Virus record (IMG/VR): IMGVR_UViG_3300036766_000184
Coordinates: 1-64,000 of that record
From: a virus
Reading direction: 5' to 3' (one strand)
DNA: 64,000 nt
Shown here: one piece after another, positions 6,695 through 27,519 of the stretch
Position numbering within the stretch: position 1 is the stretch's first letter
How the letters are laid out: each line of letters opens with the position of its first letter
Made by a program: the position numbers and the translations under genes
The notes under the pieces: generated by a model
Database searches by the model: none
What the model was told of the DNA's origin: nothing
The model's input: only the letters and a program-made list of their open reading frames with translations

Positions 6695-6939
6695 GTTTCC
6701 TGTCCCGAGGAATGAATGGAGTTCTCGACTGGCTCACCGCCGACTCCACTGCCCGCCGGGCACGCTCGATGGACTGGCATCTCCGCAACCTCAACTTGGT
6801 GCGCCACCGGCCCTGCGGGAAGTTCGTGATCCAGCGGCCCGACGACCCGGAGATCCAGCGGCTGCTGCGGATGGACCTTGCGGCGTTCAACGCGGCGATC
6901 TGTGGGTGTGAGGCGGGCGCGTTCGTGATGAGCGAATGA
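6691..6939 (+). CDS. Hypothetical protein
   Basis: Coupled ORF. Confidence 0.45.
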   Translation: MSFLSRGMNGVLDWLTADSTARRARSMDWHLRNLNLVRHRPCGKFVIQRPDDPEIQRLLRMDLAAFNAAICGCEAGAFVMSE

Positions 6940-7250
6940 TGGACTGCGAGCCAGAATACCAAACCGCGTTCTATGCGTGCGGGTGCTGGGCAACTGGATA
7001 TGGATACGAACGGATACCAGCCTATTGCCCCGAGCACGGACACCCCGCGGTACCTCCCGGCTCAATCCTTGACGAGTTCCGCTGCTCCGGCGAGTGCCCG
7101 ATTTGTGGCGGTGATGGCCACGTTTGCGAGGCGCACCCAGATCGCCCGTGGCGCGACGGCGACGGATGCTGCGGCGCGGCCGGGATGCCCTGTCCGAACA
7201 TCACGAAGACGCGCGCGGCATTCATGTCCGCGCCCCGTTCCACTTCGTGA
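6936..7250 (+). CDS. Cys-rich hypothetical protein
   Basis: CPICGGDGHVCEAHPDRPW...CCGAAGMPCP. Confidence 0.55.
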   Translation: MMDCEPEYQTAFYACGCWATGYGYERIPAYCPEHGHPAVPPGSILDEFRCSGECPICGGDGHVCEAHPDRPWRDGDGCCGAAGMPCPNITKTRAAFMSAPRSTS

Positions 7251-7376
7251 GCATGGACGCGAAGGCGTGAAACCCAAGCCCCCGAAGCCCGAGCCAACGC
7301 CCCGCCCCGAGAACCACGGGAAGTTGTGTCAGTGTATCGGGTGCCGATCGGCGCGCACTGCCCGGCCGGGCAAGAA

Positions 7377-7601
7377 GTGAAGGTCGAACTCTGGGACCGC
7401 GACGGCGTGCCGCTCCGGTACGCGAATCTTCCGATCGAGCGCGGTGAGAGAGTCGTGAAGATCCCGATCCGTTCACGCCTCACCGCGAGCGCGTTCGACA
7501 GCGGCGACGCCATCCCTGACCACGCCCCATTCCACGACGCGACCTACCTCCGCGTCAACCCCGGACGGGCCGGCGTGCCGATTTTCCGGGAACAGGTGTG
7601 A
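7377..7601 (+). CDS. Hypothetical protein whose 3' end is duplicated in diverged form after tnpB
   Basis: GTGA-coupled start; ends VPIFREQV*. Confidence 0.6.
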   Translation: MKVELWDRDGVPLRYANLPIERGERVVKIPIRSRLTASAFDSGDAIPDHAPFHDATYLRVNPGRAGVPIFREQV

Positions 7602-7626
7602 GCGGCCCCCTACGTCGAGATCTTGA

Positions 7627-8829
7627 GTGCTGATCCACCGCGGCTTCCGCTACCGCATCTACCCGACCCCCGAGCAAGCCGAGCGCTTGCGCCAGTGGGA
7701 AGGGTCGCTACGAGTGCTCTGGAACCTCGCCCACGAGCAGCGCCTTGCGTACCTGCACCGACACGTCAAGATGCCGTCGGCCTTCGACCAGATCAACGAG
7801 TTGACGGCCCTCCGTGCCGACGTGTCGTGGATCGCGGATGTGCCTCGGGATGTGACCGCGCAACTCCTGGTGGACCTCGACGCGGCATGGCAACGGTGTT
7901 TCTCGAAGCTGGCGCGGCGCCCCCGCTGGAAGAAGAAGGGGCGTGACGTGGTAAATATCACCGGGCCGAGATCGGCTAGGTTCCGACTGACCGCCGACGG
8001 CCTTGTATTTCCGAAGCTCGGCGAGATCCGTGCCGCCCTGCACCGACCGATCCGGGGCACCCCGAAACGCTGCACGATCAGTCGAGAGGTCGATCAATGG
8101 TTCGTGTCGATTCTGTGCGAGCAGGACGTGCCCGACCCTGAGATCCGTACCGGCCCGATCGTGGCCATCGACTGCGGGATCACCAACCTGCTCGCCGACT
8201 CGGACGGCGTGCTGACGCCGAATCAGAAACACCTGGAGCAGTCGCTCACGAAGCTGCGACGAGCCCAGCGGGTCGTGGCCCGCCGTGAGAAGGGGTCCCG
8301 TCGTCGCGAGCGTGCAAAGATCCGGGTCGCCAAGATCCACCGGAAGATCCGCCGTCAGCGGGCGCACGTCCTGCACGAACTCTCGTCCCGCTACGCCAAG
8401 AGCCACGGCGTGGTCGTGGTCGAGAACCTGAACATCGCGGGCATGGTCAAGAGCGGGCTCGGCCGGCACATCGCCGGAGCTGGTTGGGGCATCTTCTGCA
8501 CGATGCTCCGCTATAAGCTGGAGGCCACGGGCGGCACGCTCGTTGAAGTCCCCGCCGCCTACTCAAGCCAAGCCTGCGCTCAGTGCGGCGTGGCCGATGC
8601 GGCGAGTCGTCGCGGTGAACAGTTCCGCTGCGTCGCCTGCGGGCATGAAGACCACGCGGACTTGAACGCCGCCAAAGTTCTTCTCAGCCGTCGAAGCGAC
8701 GGTGGTGCTGGCCGTGGAGGCTACGCTGAAGTAAAGCGTCCTGCGAAACGGCAACTTCGCGTCGTAAGGCGCGGACGCTCGACTCAGGGTCTGGGGCCAC
8801 TGCAAAGCCACAGACTTCAGGCCGTGTGA
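7627..8829 (+). CDS. tnpB: RNA-guided endonuclease TnpB (IS200/IS605/IS607 OrfB family), catalytic residues intact
   Basis: GFRYRIYPT N-terminus; RuvC-I VAIDCG, RuvC-II VVVENL, zinc finger CAQCG..CVACG, RuvC-III DHADLNAA. Confidence 0.93.
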   Translation: MLIHRGFRYRIYPTPEQAERLRQWEGSLRVLWNLAHEQRLAYLHRHVKMPSAFDQINELTALRADVSWIADVPRDVTAQLLVDLDAAWQRCFSKLARRPRWKKKGRDVVNITGPRSARFRLTADGLVFPKLGEIRAALHRPIRGTPKRCTISREVDQWFVSILCEQDVPDPEIRTGPIVAIDCGITNLLADSDGVLTPNQKHLEQSLTKLRRAQRVVARREKGSRRRERAKIRVAKIHRKIRRQRAHVLHELSSRYAKSHGVVVVENLNIAGMVKSGLGRHIAGAGWGIFCTMLRYKLEATGGTLVEVPAAYSSQACAQCGVADAASRRGEQFRCVACGHEDHADLNAAKVLLSRRSDGGAGRGGYAEVKRPAKRQLRVVRRGRSTQGLGPLQSHRLQAV

Positions 8830-8856
8830 TGTTTACGCCGATCTTCCAGGAGCAGC
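8690..8856 (+). ncRNA. Predicted omegaRNA overlapping the tnpB 3' end; scaffold ends ~8836, guide ~8837-8856
   Basis: Typical right-end sequence AAGCCACAGACTTCAGGCCGTGTGATGTTTAC after an Arg/Gly-rich ORF tail. The 5' boundary is approximate. Confidence 0.6.
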
Positions 8857-8867
8857 TCTAGCCCGCC

Positions 8868-10523
8868 ATGGCGGTGACCGTCAACGCTCCAAAGGTCGAG
8901 CCCCAGGTGCCGGACGGGGCGAGTGTGTACGCGCCGAGTCCGACCGCCGAGGAGTTCATTCACGCCTGCGCGTCCGGGCCGATCTCCGAATTTCGCGTGC
9001 TGTCTTTAACATCCAGTCGAGGTGAAGGGAAGACAACCGCCGCGATCTACGCCCTCTTCTGTCTCGGTCAGCGTCTCGCCCAAGATGGTCTGTCAGGTCG
9101 CCTTCCGCTCCGCGTCGCCGTCGTGAGAGATACGTTCCTGAACATCCAGAGGACCACGATCGCCTCCCTCCGCAAACAAGCCTCTAAGGGTTTACCGATC
9201 GAGTTTATCGCTGGTGGTGAGCAGGCATTGATGGGGCCGTACCTCCACCTGTTCTTCTTCGGCATGGACAGGCGCGCGGACGTGGACAAGCTCCAGGGCT
9301 TCGAGGCGGCTGCGCTGTGGCTCGAAGAGGTGGCTCCCGGCGCCGAGTTGGATGTTGGCATTCCAGCCGAGACGTTCGGCATCGGGGCCACCTCTCTCCG
9401 CCAAGAGGGTGTCCCGCATCGCATCCTGATGACGATGAACCCACCCGACTCTGACCATTGGAGCCTCAACGTCGATCAAGTACTCGCCGAGAAGGGGCTC
9501 GACCATCTCGTCTTCCGGCGCTTCGAGATGCCACCAGGGGAACGCAGCACCCACTTCAATCACATGGCGACCCGCGCGGCGAAGGACGGGAGGCTGCGCG
9601 AGGCCGCCATGTGGCGGGAGGCGGCTGATGACTTCGACCGATACCGCTCGCTCAACGAAGCATTCTTAGAGTCGATCGGTCGGCACGATCTCGTCTCACG
9701 GATGGTCCACGGCAAGGTCGGCGGTGTCCAGATGGGCGAGGCCGTCATCTCAACCTTTGAGCGCGATCTACACCTGACTGAGCCGGGCGAACGATTGATC
9801 GCGCTGCCGAGTGCTCAATTACTCAGGGCTTGGGACGGCGGCATGACGCCAAGCACCGTCTGGATTCAAGAGACGGCCGCCGGGAACATCGACGTGCTCG
9901 GCTCGCGCACCTCGATCAACCTCGCGATGAGCCAGCACATCCTCAATGAGGTCATTCCCTTTCAGGAGAAGTTCAAGCTCTACCCGAAGCGCGGCACGGA
10001 TGCCTTCGGGAAAGGCCAGCGGATGGGATGGGACTTCCGGGACGTGGGCGATCCCGCACTGTTCCAGGGTGACATGGTGAACAACGCAGAGATCAGCGCC
10101 GGGACCGCCATCGAGAACCTACTCAATACGATCTTCGAGCCGGGCCCGATCGAATGGGCATGGCGACGAGACGCGGGCAACCTCGCATTCGAGCGCGCCG
10201 CGATGGGACACGCGAAACTCGGGGTGATGAGTTCCGACGGCCGCCCACGATCTAGGCCGCGGCTGATTCGTATCCAGCACGACCAGAACGACATTCTCAT
10301 CAAGGGCGCGGCGGGCAGATTTCATTATGTGGTCAACATGGCGACGGGGCGAATCGACCCGAATATCAAAACAGCTAAAAGAGCCTCGGGCCTCTTCGCC
10401 CAGCCGATCGACGCCTTGCTCTACTACCTCGCGATGCGCTTCCCCGCCCACGAGTGGATGAAGAAGCAGCCGCGCCCGCCGGGCACCCCGGAGCAGCCGC
10501 CGCGGGACTGGTCGGGGGTTTGA
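8868..10523 (+). CDS. terL: Terminase large subunit
   Basis: Walker A SSRGEGKTT, Walker B ALWLEE, coupling motif MTMNPPDSDHW, nuclease motifs RAWDGG and IDALLY. Confidence 0.85.
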   Translation: MAVTVNAPKVEPQVPDGASVYAPSPTAEEFIHACASGPISEFRVLSLTSSRGEGKTTAAIYALFCLGQRLAQDGLSGRLPLRVAVVRDTFLNIQRTTIASLRKQASKGLPIEFIAGGEQALMGPYLHLFFFGMDRRADVDKLQGFEAAALWLEEVAPGAELDVGIPAETFGIGATSLRQEGVPHRILMTMNPPDSDHWSLNVDQVLAEKGLDHLVFRRFEMPPGERSTHFNHMATRAAKDGRLREAAMWREAADDFDRYRSLNEAFLESIGRHDLVSRMVHGKVGGVQMGEAVISTFERDLHLTEPGERLIALPSAQLLRAWDGGMTPSTVWIQETAAGNIDVLGSRTSINLAMSQHILNEVIPFQEKFKLYPKRGTDAFGKGQRMGWDFRDVGDPALFQGDMVNNAEISAGTAIENLLNTIFEPGPIEWAWRRDAGNLAFERAAMGHAKLGVMSSDGRPRSRPRLIRIQHDQNDILIKGAAGRFHYVVNMATGRIDPNIKTAKRASGLFAQPIDALLYYLAMRFPAHEWMKKQPRPPGTPEQPPRDWSGV

Positions 10524-10852
10524 TGTCGGGCGAGCAGCGGGTCGCCGCCCTCGACCCCGAGGACGGCATCCACCTGGTGACCCACGAGGGCACACTGATC
10601 CTGCACGGGGTCGGGGCCAGCCAGCCGGTCATCGGGGCGCTCATCGTCGCGGCGTCGATGGACCCGCAGGGATCGGGCCGGCGACAAGCGTCGTTCGGAT
10701 TGCGCGGCGACATCATCGCGACCCTTGAGGCGCTTGGCTATTTTCTGGCGAACAATCGAGCCGCCTGCGACATAGTGCAGGGGGTGATCGCCATCCATAC
10801 CAGCGGCACGCTGTCCGGCGACCCACCGGCACCACAGGAGGGGCCTACATGA
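10523..10852 (+). CDS. Hypothetical protein
   Basis: TGATG-coupled to terL. Confidence 0.6.
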   Translation: MSGEQRVAALDPEDGIHLVTHEGTLILHGVGASQPVIGALIVAASMDPQGSGRRQASFGLRGDIIATLEALGYFLANNRAACDIVQGVIAIHTSGTLSGDPPAPQEGPT

Positions 10853-25811: not shown

Positions 25812-26855
25812 ATGAAGACCCTCACCCATCAGCTCCAGGCGGCCTACGAGGCCCTCGGCCTGCCCATCATCATGGGTGGGACGGACACCGAAGTCCTCAC
25901 GGGCGACGCCGTCACCGTCAAGCGGTGGGCGAGTCGTCTCTGGGTCGAGATGCCCCGGTCGATCTACTGGGCGAAGTTCATGAAGACCAACGACATGAAC
26001 TCGATCATCGAGGTCAAGGAAGACCTGGTCGGCCAGCCCGGAGATCAGATCACCTTCACGCTCCTGCGCAAGCTGACGGGCGCCGGCGTGTCGGGTGACA
26101 ACACGATGGAAGGCAGCGAAGAGGCGATGGTGCCGTATTCCGACACCGTGGTCCTCGATCAGGTCAGGAACGCCGTCCGGCTCAAGGGCAAGCTCTCGGA
26201 GCGCCGCACCGCATGGTCGCAGCGCAACGCGGCCAAGACCATCCTCCAGACGTGGATGGCCGAGACGATCGACGACGACATCTTCACCCAGTTCGACAGC
26301 TCCCCGTCGACCGCGCTCTACGGCGGCTCCGCGACCGCGACGGCCAACATCACGACCTCCGACAAGGTGACCCCGAGTCTGTTCAACCGGGCGGTCGCCA
26401 AGTCCCGCAAGTCCATCCCGAAGATCTGGCCGGTGCGCCTGAACGGCAAGGACCTGTTCGTCTCGGTCCTGCACACGGATGTCGCGTACGACCTGGAGCA
26501 GGACTCGACCTGGCAGGCGTTCCAGCGTGACGCGGCGATGCGCGGGGACGACAACCCCATCTTCACCGGCATGAACGGCATGATCGGCGGCGTCATCATC
26601 CACTCGCACGAGAAGGTGCCGATCTCGACCACGTACGGCGCGGGCGGCAATCTGACCGGCGCGGCCAACTTCTTCCTCGGGAGACAGGCGGGACTGTTCG
26701 CTTGGGGTGAGCGTCCCAAGTGGTGGGAAAAGGAATTCGATTACGGGAACGCGACTGGATTTTGCATCGGGGCTACCTGGGACTTCACAAAGGCAGTGTT
26801 TAACAGCGTGGATCACGCTTTCATCAGTCTTCGTTCGTATAGAACTTCCGTCTAG
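25812..26855 (+). CDS. Major capsid protein (N4-gp56/DUF4043-like)
   Basis: DLVGQPGDQITFTL...GVSGDNTMEGSEE...LDQVRNAV; NPIFTG; EKEFDYGN. Confidence 0.9.
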   Translation: MKTLTHQLQAAYEALGLPIIMGGTDTEVLTGDAVTVKRWASRLWVEMPRSIYWAKFMKTNDMNSIIEVKEDLVGQPGDQITFTLLRKLTGAGVSGDNTMEGSEEAMVPYSDTVVLDQVRNAVRLKGKLSERRTAWSQRNAAKTILQTWMAETIDDDIFTQFDSSPSTALYGGSATATANITTSDKVTPSLFNRAVAKSRKSIPKIWPVRLNGKDLFVSVLHTDVAYDLEQDSTWQAFQRDAAMRGDDNPIFTGMNGMIGGVIIHSHEKVPISTTYGAGGNLTGAANFFLGRQAGLFAWGERPKWWEKEFDYGNATGFCIGATWDFTKAVFNSVDHAFISLRSYRTSV

Positions 26856-26937
26856 AGAATCTTCTTGACTCTCACGATGGATGTTGCTAAGCTGCCCTCC
26901 ATGGCCAGCGCTACTGGCGGCCATGGAGGAGTCAGCG

Positions 26938-27519
26938 ATGGAAGAGGAGAGAACCAAACGATGCGGTGTTTGCAAACTGGACAAGCCGCTCTCGGCCTTC
27001 TACGCCAAGCCAGGCGTGAAGGACGGACGGATGTCGAAGTGCAAGGACTGCCAACGTCAGTACGTGCAGGGTCGCTACAACCGCATCCGTCCGGTGTGGC
27101 CCGAGGGTCACAAGTACTGCCCGCGATGCAAGCGGGTATTGCTGTTCGCGGAGTTCGACAAGAACGCGCGCCGCGGAGATGGCTTGCAGACCTACTGCAA
27201 GACGTGCTGGCCGGAGTACCAGAAGTACTGGCGCAAGCGGCCCGAGGCGGGCTTCATGGCGACCGAGAAAATCAAGCGGAGCCTGAAGACTCCTGTCGGC
27301 GCGCTCAAGGCTCGGGCACGTCAACTCACCGCGCTGGCCATTCAGTTCGGCCACCTCGTGCCTGCGCCCTGCGAGGCCGACGGGTGCGGAAGCCTGGATG
27401 TCCAGGCGCATCACACGCAGTACGAGAAGCCGCTCGACGGGATTCGCTGGTACTGCGAGAAGCACCACTTGGACGTGGGCCACGGCGGTCAGTGGACGAA
27501 TCCGCCGGTGGGCGCCTAA
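26938..27519 (+). CDS. Zn-finger/HNH-like homing endonuclease
   Basis: KRCGVCKLDKPLSAFY..DGRMSKCKDC repeated; VQAHHTQYEKPL..WYCEKHH; own promoter TTGACT-17-TAAGCT and GGAGG site. Confidence 0.75.
   Translation: MEEERTKRCGVCKLDKPLSAFYAKPGVKDGRMSKCKDCQRQYVQGRYNRIRPVWPEGHKYCPRCKRVLLFAEFDKNARRGDGLQTYCKTCWPEYQKYWRKRPEAGFMATEKIKRSLKTPVGALKARARQLTALAIQFGHLVPAPCEADGCGSLDVQAHHTQYEKPLDGIRWYCEKHHLDVGHGGQWTNPPVGA

Follow-up and report, generated by a model that had tools for sequence, protein, structure and literature searches.

A tnpB gene of the IS200/IS605 insertion sequence (IS) family is present, with no transposase gene, in a window comprising the first 64 kb of the 87,863-bp IMG/VR virus record IMGVR_UViG_3300036766_000184 (87.9 kb, G+C content about 66%). 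The gene lies between a small open reading frame (ORF), here called gene X, and a terminase large subunit-like gene, and the 25 nucleotides (nt) just beyond the right end of its element read as a displaced 3' end of gene X; these 25 nt are referred to below as the relic. In structure and in history, the locus is very probably a 5'-truncated IS200/IS605-family insertion with the relic as its flank. The best explanation for it, favoured here with moderate confidence, is that the truncated IS lies in gene X, that the gene was repaired in a process involving two alleles, and that the guide of the TnpB-associated RNA (omegaRNA) is aimed at the unoccupied allele of sibling phages. Active homing or competition by TnpB, as far as the sequence can suggest it, is possible and on the doubtful side.

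A displaced gene end at the right boundary of the element

All genes around the locus are encoded on the plus strand, in the order small ORFs, gene X, a 25-nt spacer, tnpB, 7 nt, the 25-nt relic, 6 nt and a 551-aa gene (Table 1). The sequence at 7577-7601 reads GCCGATTTTCCGGGAACAGGTGTGA and closes the ORF 7326-7601, and the relic at 8837-8861 reads GCCGATCTTCCAGGAGCAGCTCTAG (PIFQEQL*). Over the first 19 nt the two 25-mers share 16 bases, and over all 25 they share 18; both encode P-I-F-x-E-Q-x-stop, with the stop codons in register. The coordinates and letters of this repeat, its 16/19 identity and the shared stop position had been described in a first-pass annotation and were all confirmed by reading and alignment, as was the 25-nt gap between the upstream stop and tnpB, which occupies 7602-7626 before the GTG start codon. 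The differences between the two gene ends (seven changes in 25 nt) comprise two synonymous changes, R/Q, V/L and TGA/TAG, and the similarity between the end of gene X and the relic ceases at the stop codon. When the relic 25-mer was compared with both strands of the 64-kb window at a threshold of at least 18/25, only 7577 and an unrelated position, 21021, matched; at about one to two such matches per 128,000 positions, an in-register match on the stop codon of tnpB's neighbour is very unlikely to arise by chance.

The right end of the element can be placed independently of this repeat. TnpB relatives were found in another viral contig (L002, 70% identical), in metagenome-assembled genomes of Rokubacteria and Nitrospira (L049-L052 and L055, 69-74%) and in a Conexibacter genome (L053, 53%). 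The 3' regions of seven sequences were aligned, including L051, which is cut by a contig end, and L053, which has a different end; five of the seven (the window, L002, L049, L050 and L052) finish in TGATGTTTAC and are unrelated beyond it. Since these five share a terminus and then diverge, the right end lies exactly between positions 8836 and 8837, the boundary that had been predicted for the omegaRNA. The relic begins at the first base outside the element, which supports the earlier proposal that the element entered the 3' end of the gene.

The left side of the locus has no such counterpart in the relatives. Upstream sequence is available for four cellular relatives (L049, L050, L051 and L055), all of which have a Y1 tnpA (the L050 TnpA scores 6.5e-39 against Y1_Tnp) and a hairpin left end, CCCCGGCC-TTCA-GGCCGGGG; the TGA stop of tnpA overlaps the GTG start of tnpB. 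Left-end similarity starts directly after TTCAT (L049, L050 and L051) or ATCAT (L055), and (T/A)TCAT is taken, from these four junctions, to be the probable insertion motif and hence the transposon-adjacent motif (TAM). The window becomes similar to these elements only from approximately 7624, at TGA-GTG (7624-7629), with nothing resembling tnpA or a left end upstream; the TGA at 7624-7626 is the remnant of the tnpA stop. A tblastn search of the whole 87,863-bp record with the L050 TnpA found no tnpA (best E value 0.5), no left-end hairpin was found at the locus, and an nhmmer left-end profile matched nothing near it, the only match in the record being a 30-nt fragment at genome positions 71235-71264. 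The absence of tnpA and of the left-end hairpin, both claimed in the first-pass annotation, is thus confirmed, the former over the whole record. The right end finishes in the same TGATGTTTAC as in the relatives, and its DNA hairpin, the one that TnpA would read, pairs at five of seven positions versus seven of seven in L049, L050 and L052.

A similarly truncated copy is found in another phage. The L002 tnpB (L002:3001-4210) is likewise cut off at its start codon, and neither tnpA nor a left end lies within 3 kb of it. Its G+C content at third codon positions (GC3) is 0.59, near the 0.56 of its phage flanks, as opposed to 0.76-0.90 in the cellular relatives, and its ratio of nonsynonymous to synonymous substitution rates (dN/dS) is 0.11-0.14. 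That another phage has long carried a tnpB with no tnpA is counted as indirect support for homing. The L002 tnpB follows a gene that was read by eye as a lytic transglycosylase.

The junctions are also present in an independent assembly. In the Logan assembly of the same run, one contig spans 6900-9500 with 0 differences from the window, so that the junctions are not the artefact of one assembler, though both assemblies derive from identical reads.

Table 1. Features of the tnpB locus (window coordinates)
Feature	Position	Strand	Description
Gene X	7326..7601	+	91 aa, ends in ...VPIFREQV*; from the ORF listing; no Pfam or PHROG match
Upstream copy (working 3' end of gene X)	7577..7601	+	18/25 nt identical to the relic; preceded by GGCGT, without the (inferred) TAM
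Spacer, 25 nt	7602..7626	+	Only the last bases are element-derived (alignments A3 and A4)
tnpB	7627..8829	+	400 aa, GTG start; D182/E266/D345; CxxC pairs 317-320 and 335-338
omegaRNA scaffold (5' limit provisional) and element right end	8640..8836	+	Overlaps the 3' end of tnpB; terminates with the conserved TGATGTTTAC (8827-8836)
Relic (PIFQEQL*), 3' end of a second gene X allele	8837..8861	+	Original insertion flank
AGGAG in the relic	8848..8852	+	15 nt ahead of the terminase-like start codon; read from the sequence
Terminase large subunit-like gene	8868..10523	+	551 aa; named from distant homologue P0056 and Atlas cluster names

The nuclease and its predicted omegaRNA

The protein encoded by tnpB matches PF01385 (OrfB_IS605, 1.8e-24), PF07282 (Cas12f1-like_TNB, 1.1e-19) and PF12323 (HTH_OrfB_IS605, 7.8e-12), and chains from ISDra2 TnpB structures match it at an E value of 7e-36. 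In an alignment with the ISDra2 TnpB chain 8h1j_A, the catalytic RuvC D/E/D columns are occupied by D182, E266 and D345, so that the intact D-E-D triad claimed earlier stands; two CxxC pairs are also present. An RNAalifold consensus of the last 197 nt of the five sequences contains 59 pairs, and compensatory changes are seen at 15 of these. Of the 59 pairs, 51 are retained in the window and 51-57 in the four relatives; a single-sequence fold of the RNA region (z = -1.5) is uninformative. Judging from these features, TnpB looks intact.

Origin of the two gene ends

According to the preprint by Meers et al., IS200/IS605 elements insert 3' of the TAM without target duplication and require both ends for excision, and TnpA and TnpB recognise the same TAM, the target consisting of the TAM and the right-end flank. 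Because the right junction is exact to the base, insertion by TnpA is the likely origin of the locus. Insertion of this kind sets the left end beside the TAM and duplicates no target sequence; the left side seen today must therefore have arisen secondarily. The pattern of differences between the two gene ends, together with a similarity that ends at the stop codon, points to two separately evolved gene-end alleles and not to a decaying non-coding duplicate.

These observations can be accommodated by two steps. In the first, TnpA would have inserted the element after a TTCAT-like motif in one gene X allele just upstream of the terminase gene, at the codon before the conserved P-I-[FY], eight codons from the gene X stop. 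In the second, recombination with a second gene X allele would have set the PIFREQV* end and a few bases before the tnpB start, restoring gene X and deleting the left end and tnpA, after which the element would be immobile. Recombination with a second allele is the most likely source of the replacement end on the sequence features seen, and is held with less confidence than the truncated structure of the insertion itself. The first-pass annotation had proposed that the element itself supplied a recoded replacement end. This part of the proposal is not supported, since the relatives carry tnpA and a left end upstream of tnpB and nothing resembling gene X; the replacement end lies outside the element-derived sequence, in which homology begins at approximately 7624, and so was not brought by the element.

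The only gene X homologue found (L012:18-299, 38% identical, ending in ...IPIYRERP*) reads AGCAT/C CCGATCTACCGGGAG at the site homologous to the insertion point (marked by the slash). Since AGCAT is one base off ATCAT, a TAM at the insertion codon is plausible in other gene X alleles. Translation of the spacer from a GTG overlapping the stop codon of gene X (window 7598-7633) gives M-S-G-P-L-R-R-D-L-E-C, with a weak resemblance to M-R-F-R-R-R-E-V-Y-R-C, the start of the L012 ORF that overlaps the stop codon of the gene X homologue there (L012:297-340). Short as it is, the spacer might be what is left of a gene that came after gene X in the second allele.

Proposed guide and target

Guides of IS200/IS605 elements are templated by the flank just past the right end, according to Meers et al. 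(preprint). Under the proposed mechanism, tnpB would be transcribed with the gene X and terminase operon. A promoter and terminator scan from gene X to the terminase-like gene found no sigma-70-like promoter and no intrinsic terminator. The omegaRNA guide would be copied from 8837 onward (GCCGATCTTCCAGGAG...), and would comprise about the first 16-20 nt of the relic. TnpB with its omegaRNA would then cut TTCAT followed by the guide sequence, which is to say the unoccupied gene X/terminase junction of sibling phages with the relic-type allele; such a susceptible variant would read ...TTCATGCCGATCTTCCAGGAGCAGCTCTAG, followed by the terminase-like gene.

The phage's own genome would be spared at both copies. 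At the true flank, the right end supplies GTTTAC in the place of the TAM. The upstream copy has guide mismatches at positions 7, 12 and 16 and is preceded by GGCGT where all four full-length relatives have TTCAT or ATCAT. The earlier claim of an immune upstream copy is supported in silico by these three mismatches and the missing TAM. During co-infection, a cut genome would be repaired from the tnpB-bearing one or the rival would be destroyed, amounting to TnpA-independent homing or marker exclusion.

TnpB keeps a transposon in place after TnpA excision. The present element cannot excise, because both ends are needed (Meers et al., preprint), and the known re-cutting of the donor joint by TnpB therefore has no substrate here. 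It may be, as one tentative interpretation of the sequence, that the phage has domesticated, or was colonised by, a transposase-free TnpB that acts as an RNA-guided homing and marker-exclusion nuclease, with the fossil of the insertion site as its guide. The possibility that TnpB serves in packaging, as a nuclease substituting for the HNH protein of L012, was also considered and rejected, there being no TAM-flanked self target in the record.

Searches for targets, empty sites and second cases

Several findings count against a guide that is aimed at sibling phages. Fifty-eight exact matches to the guide 16-mer were found in IMG/VR, none with TTCAT and none extending further (at most 13/27 positions), and for these reasons they are read as chance matches. 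No TCAT-flanked match with up to four mismatches was found in the phage's own record, and the single gene X homologue, in L012, has three guide mismatches and an imperfect TAM. Among 41 terminase-related loci, no empty-site relative was found; the upstream region could be inspected in 27, in which no ORF with a gene X-like ending abuts the terminase-like gene, the other 14 being without the 5' end of that gene. A tnpB-free relative with ...PIFQEQL* directly before the terminase gene, as the first-pass annotation had envisaged, is thus not among these 27 loci. Nor was a second match between a guide and an upstream gene, for which that annotation had suggested a survey, seen in 62 of 87 tnpB loci whose downstream flank was compared with the 120 nt upstream (25 failed the length or coverage filters); the best other matches were between the left-end and right-end hairpins of intact tnpB-only elements. 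The TAM is drawn from four left-end junctions in relatives, two-allele recombination from seven differences in 25 nt, and the terminal right-end hairpin of the window has two of seven positions unpaired. The relic, which adjoins the start of the terminase-like gene and contains AGGAG, may persist for translation of that gene.

The 41 loci were obtained in several ways. A blastn search with 6900-10600 gave no match in 50,697 phage records, and a search of IMG/VR with the terminase-like protein alone likewise found nothing. A 14-sequence alignment of terminase-like proteins recovered four IMG/VR loci with 39-47% identity, and the metagenome collection yielded 37 terminase-related loci, the best 69% identical; only one of the 41 (L012) has a gene X homologue. 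In the single public run with the sequence, which is probably the source sample, no contig contains a joint that skips the element, and because contigs drop rare variants these contigs are uninformative on empty-site variants; no RNA run with the sequence was listed. The guides of L002 and of a second tnpB gene in the same phage (described below) have no second copy.

Alternative explanations

The most serious rival explanation accepts the same insertion and repair but holds that TnpB and its omegaRNA are now idle, that the gene survives by recency or drift, and that the relic is retained merely as the sequence that precedes the terminase start. No target-bearing genome was found, the element is unable to transpose (having neither a left end nor tnpA), its right-end hairpin is imperfect and AGGAG (8848-8852) lies inside the relic, all of which fit this explanation, as does the report by Meers et al. 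(preprint) that about three quarters of tnpB genes have no nearby tnpA. Among the loci compared here, 22 of 80 cellular ones and 0 of 10 viral ones had a tnpA within the flank. However, the 400-aa frame is open and retains all catalytic and zinc-binding residues, and pairing in the RNA scaffold is no poorer than in the relatives, with compensatory changes in the alignment. Nei-Gojobori dN/dS (0.18 for the window versus L050 and 0.22 versus L049, with dS of approximately 0.8-0.9) is not above that between the mobile relatives L049 and L050 (0.23), although such an average spans the times before and after capture and is therefore no proof of selection in the phage. The L002 phage, in addition, has kept a similarly truncated copy until its base composition matched. 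An idle TnpB is thus rather unlikely on this evidence, and remains a serious rival because no target, empty site or second case was found, the TAM comes from four junctions and the relic may have a role in translation.

A second alternative would require neither a second allele nor TnpA-mediated insertion: the end of gene X may have suffered a staggered break that captured the tnpB cassette, with fill-in producing a 25-bp repeat whose copies later diverged. The cassette is indeed flanked by direct repeats, and its left junction is not a transposon end. Against such a duplication in situ, the right junction lies at precisely the base where the right end of the transposon falls in four relatives, which points to cleavage by TnpA, and IS200/IS605 insertion makes no target duplication (Meers et al., preprint). 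The repeat also halts exactly at the stop codon, and the non-coding copy is still an in-frame gene end with a stop despite seven changes. This origin is improbable.

Guide-directed binding at the mismatched upstream copy, regulating tnpB or gene X in the manner of TldR proteins, had been offered in the first-pass annotation as an alternative, and the partial match does sit 26-50 bp upstream of the tnpB start. The site is, however, preceded by GGCGT and not by the inferred TAM (TTCAT or ATCAT), two of its mismatches, at guide positions 7 and 12, are TAM-proximal, and the RuvC triad is intact, whereas known TnpB-derived regulators are nuclease-dead. Binding without cleavage is accordingly very hard to sustain as an explanation.

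Finally, the repeat by itself, when position is ignored, is unremarkable, as other 19-nt repeats with 84% identity occur within the same 2.4 kb, the 16-nt guide with up to three mismatches has five matches in the window versus 1.14 expected, and a local-alignment test blind to position gives only p = 0.02. Yet only one other match of at least 18/25 exists in 128,000 positions, and this one lines up in frame with the stop codon of the neighbouring gene and starts exactly at an independently defined right-end boundary, so that coincidence is scarcely credible.

Gene X and the terminase-like gene

Gene X is close to an orphan. A word-index search with its protein returned only the phage's own protein, and a HMMER profile search of 1.84 billion representatives returned only itself, the L012 protein and one repeat protein; a scan of IMG/VR with the two-sequence gene X alignment found none. 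In L012, the gene X homologue and the terminase-like gene are separated by three small ORFs and an HNH gene.

The terminase-like gene has no Pfam, PHROG or PDB sequence match. A distant homologue of its product, P0056 (E value 1.5e-44 to the query), matches Terminase_3 with 24.9 bits, and the Atlas clusters closest to it carry the name terminase large subunit (score 0.98); the name "terminase large subunit-like" is used on the basis of these two results. The AGGAG in the relic may be the ribosome-binding site of this gene, although the spacing is long.

PF14528, a LAGLIDADG intein-endonuclease family, was detected in 9 of 56 homologues of the terminase-like protein, and 12 of the 56 are at least 831 aa long. 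The closest terminase-like relative (L012:1321-3897, 69% identical) has an internal insertion that results in a protein of 858 aa, and an HNH_3 endonuclease gene (L012:821-1279) lies directly upstream of it. The family is a hot spot for selfish elements, which is counted as indirect support for homing.

Other elements in related phages and in the same record

One occupied/empty pair of sites was found in two groundwater phage contigs, L027 and L032, which are 90-95% identical to each other and have terminase-like proteins 41% identical to that of the window. A tnpB-only element with both hairpin ends is present at L027:1903-3051 and absent at L032:5752/5753; it sits approximately 70 nt downstream of the terminase-like gene, after CGTGAC. 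When L027 with the element virtually excised is compared with L032, the sequence to the right of the junction is identical for 6 nt, is rich in substitutions and small indels over approximately 40 nt, and is then 100% identical for 108 nt. Because of this scrambled patch of approximately 40 nt, the empty L032 allele mismatches the presumed guide of L027 from position 7 on. This pattern is what a drive-resistant allele would look like, in a single pair and with the patch partly intergenic. The L027 TnpB has a glycine at the position of the RuvC-II glutamate (E266 in the window).

A second tnpB is present in the same record outside the window, at genome positions 73794-74981 (L187:3795-4982). 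It encodes a 395-aa protein that is 31% identical to the first and contains the three Pfam domains, and there is no Y1 tnpA nearby. Aligned against two viral relatives (51-53% identical), the element appears to close on the right in GGATGTCAACTG, at genome position 75021. Its presumed guide has no second copy in the genome.

The 30-nt stretch at 71235-71264 (L187:1236-1265), CTCAT-AGAACCTCCTC-GGCGCGGAAACCCCG, matches the start of the left end of the first tnpB family (nhmmer E value 4e-4). It includes the TAM-like CTCAT and ends before the hairpin closes; on the opposite strand, it provides GGAGG and ATG for a small ORF. It may be the left-end relic of another insertion, or a chance match.

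Elsewhere in the window, 25812-26855 encodes a major capsid protein (Phage_capsid_3, 8.8e-36). The ORF at 26881-27519 has no HNH family match in Pfam at E values up to 0.01, and only a sub-threshold match to Stc1.

Comparison with known systems

The locus shares with IS200/IS605 TnpB systems such as ISDra2 the protein family, the domain order, the RuvC D/E/D residues and the zinc finger, as well as an omegaRNA that overlaps the 3' end of tnpB and halts at the right end, a guide templated by the right-end flank, and a TAM that is the insertion motif of the transposase. Unlike them, the phage copy has neither tnpA nor a left end, and so no excision and no donor joint to restore, and a second copy of the gene's end, divergent from the target, has restored the interrupted gene on the upstream side.

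Mears et al. (PMC11870625) describe how TnpB drives IS200/605 elements through multicopy plasmid populations independently of TnpA. In that plasmid system, as is proposed here, an element-free co-resident replicon is cut and the element-bearing copy is favoured without TnpA. The plasmid drive was shown experimentally with complete elements, whereas the present case concerns a truncated element in a phage and is known from sequence alone; in the phage, moreover, the distinction between self and non-self would depend on loss of the TAM and on mismatches in a duplicated gene end.

Free-standing homing endonucleases of phage T4 (SegF, SegG and Mob) take part in intronless homing or localized marker exclusion, according to a 2026 review (PMC13565253). 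In those cases, as here, a nuclease gene lies between conserved phage genes, with its presumed target in the neighbouring gene of nuclease-free relatives, and its own allele is protected by substitutions (here, in silico, three guide mismatches and no TAM). The phage locus differs in that recognition would be by an RNA guide and a TAM, with the target recorded in cis as the relic.

Two further kinds of TnpB-derived system resemble the locus in part. TldR proteins are nuclease-dead, TnpB-derived RNA-guided transcription factors. Like them, the phage protein is an immobilised TnpB homologue with a fixed guide and no tnpA; unlike them, it has an intact triad, on which ground a TldR-like regulator is rejected, and the only near-match in the genome has no TAM. 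An IStron, in which a group I intron is fused to an IS605 or IS607 element (PMC10690162), is likewise a tnpB element inside a gene whose function persists. Here gene X is preserved by a duplicated end and not by splicing, and an IStron is rejected, as a search of 7000-9500 against Rfam at E values up to 1 found no family match, group I introns included.

Phage tnpB genes already on record include those of cyanophage A-1(L) and the Thermus Lalka phages. Among the matches listed in literature searches on phage TnpB and homing, supplementary tables aside, there is no transposase-less phage TnpB guided by a displaced gene end and no TnpB homing between phages. The 2026 review (PMC13565253) treats "transposon non-restorative homing" into coinfected phages or plasmids only as a theoretical category, for the phage side of which the present locus is a concrete natural candidate.

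Implications

In this phage, an RNA-guided nuclease has outlived its transposase, its presumed target is an allele of a phage gene, and a resistant copy of that target is built into the same locus. Should TnpB prove inactive, the locus would still be a clean example of an IS200/IS605 insertion in an important phage gene that was repaired and left the element stranded. If the homing interpretation is true, the locus would drive itself through a virus population by RNA-guided cutting, a natural gene drive with no need of transposition, and co-infecting siblings with the susceptible allele would be cut and converted, or eliminated. The guide (8837-8856), the inferred TAM (TTCAT) and the resistant site (7577-7596) together form a testable three-part system, which could show whether RNA-guided nucleases act as homing endonucleases in competition between phages.

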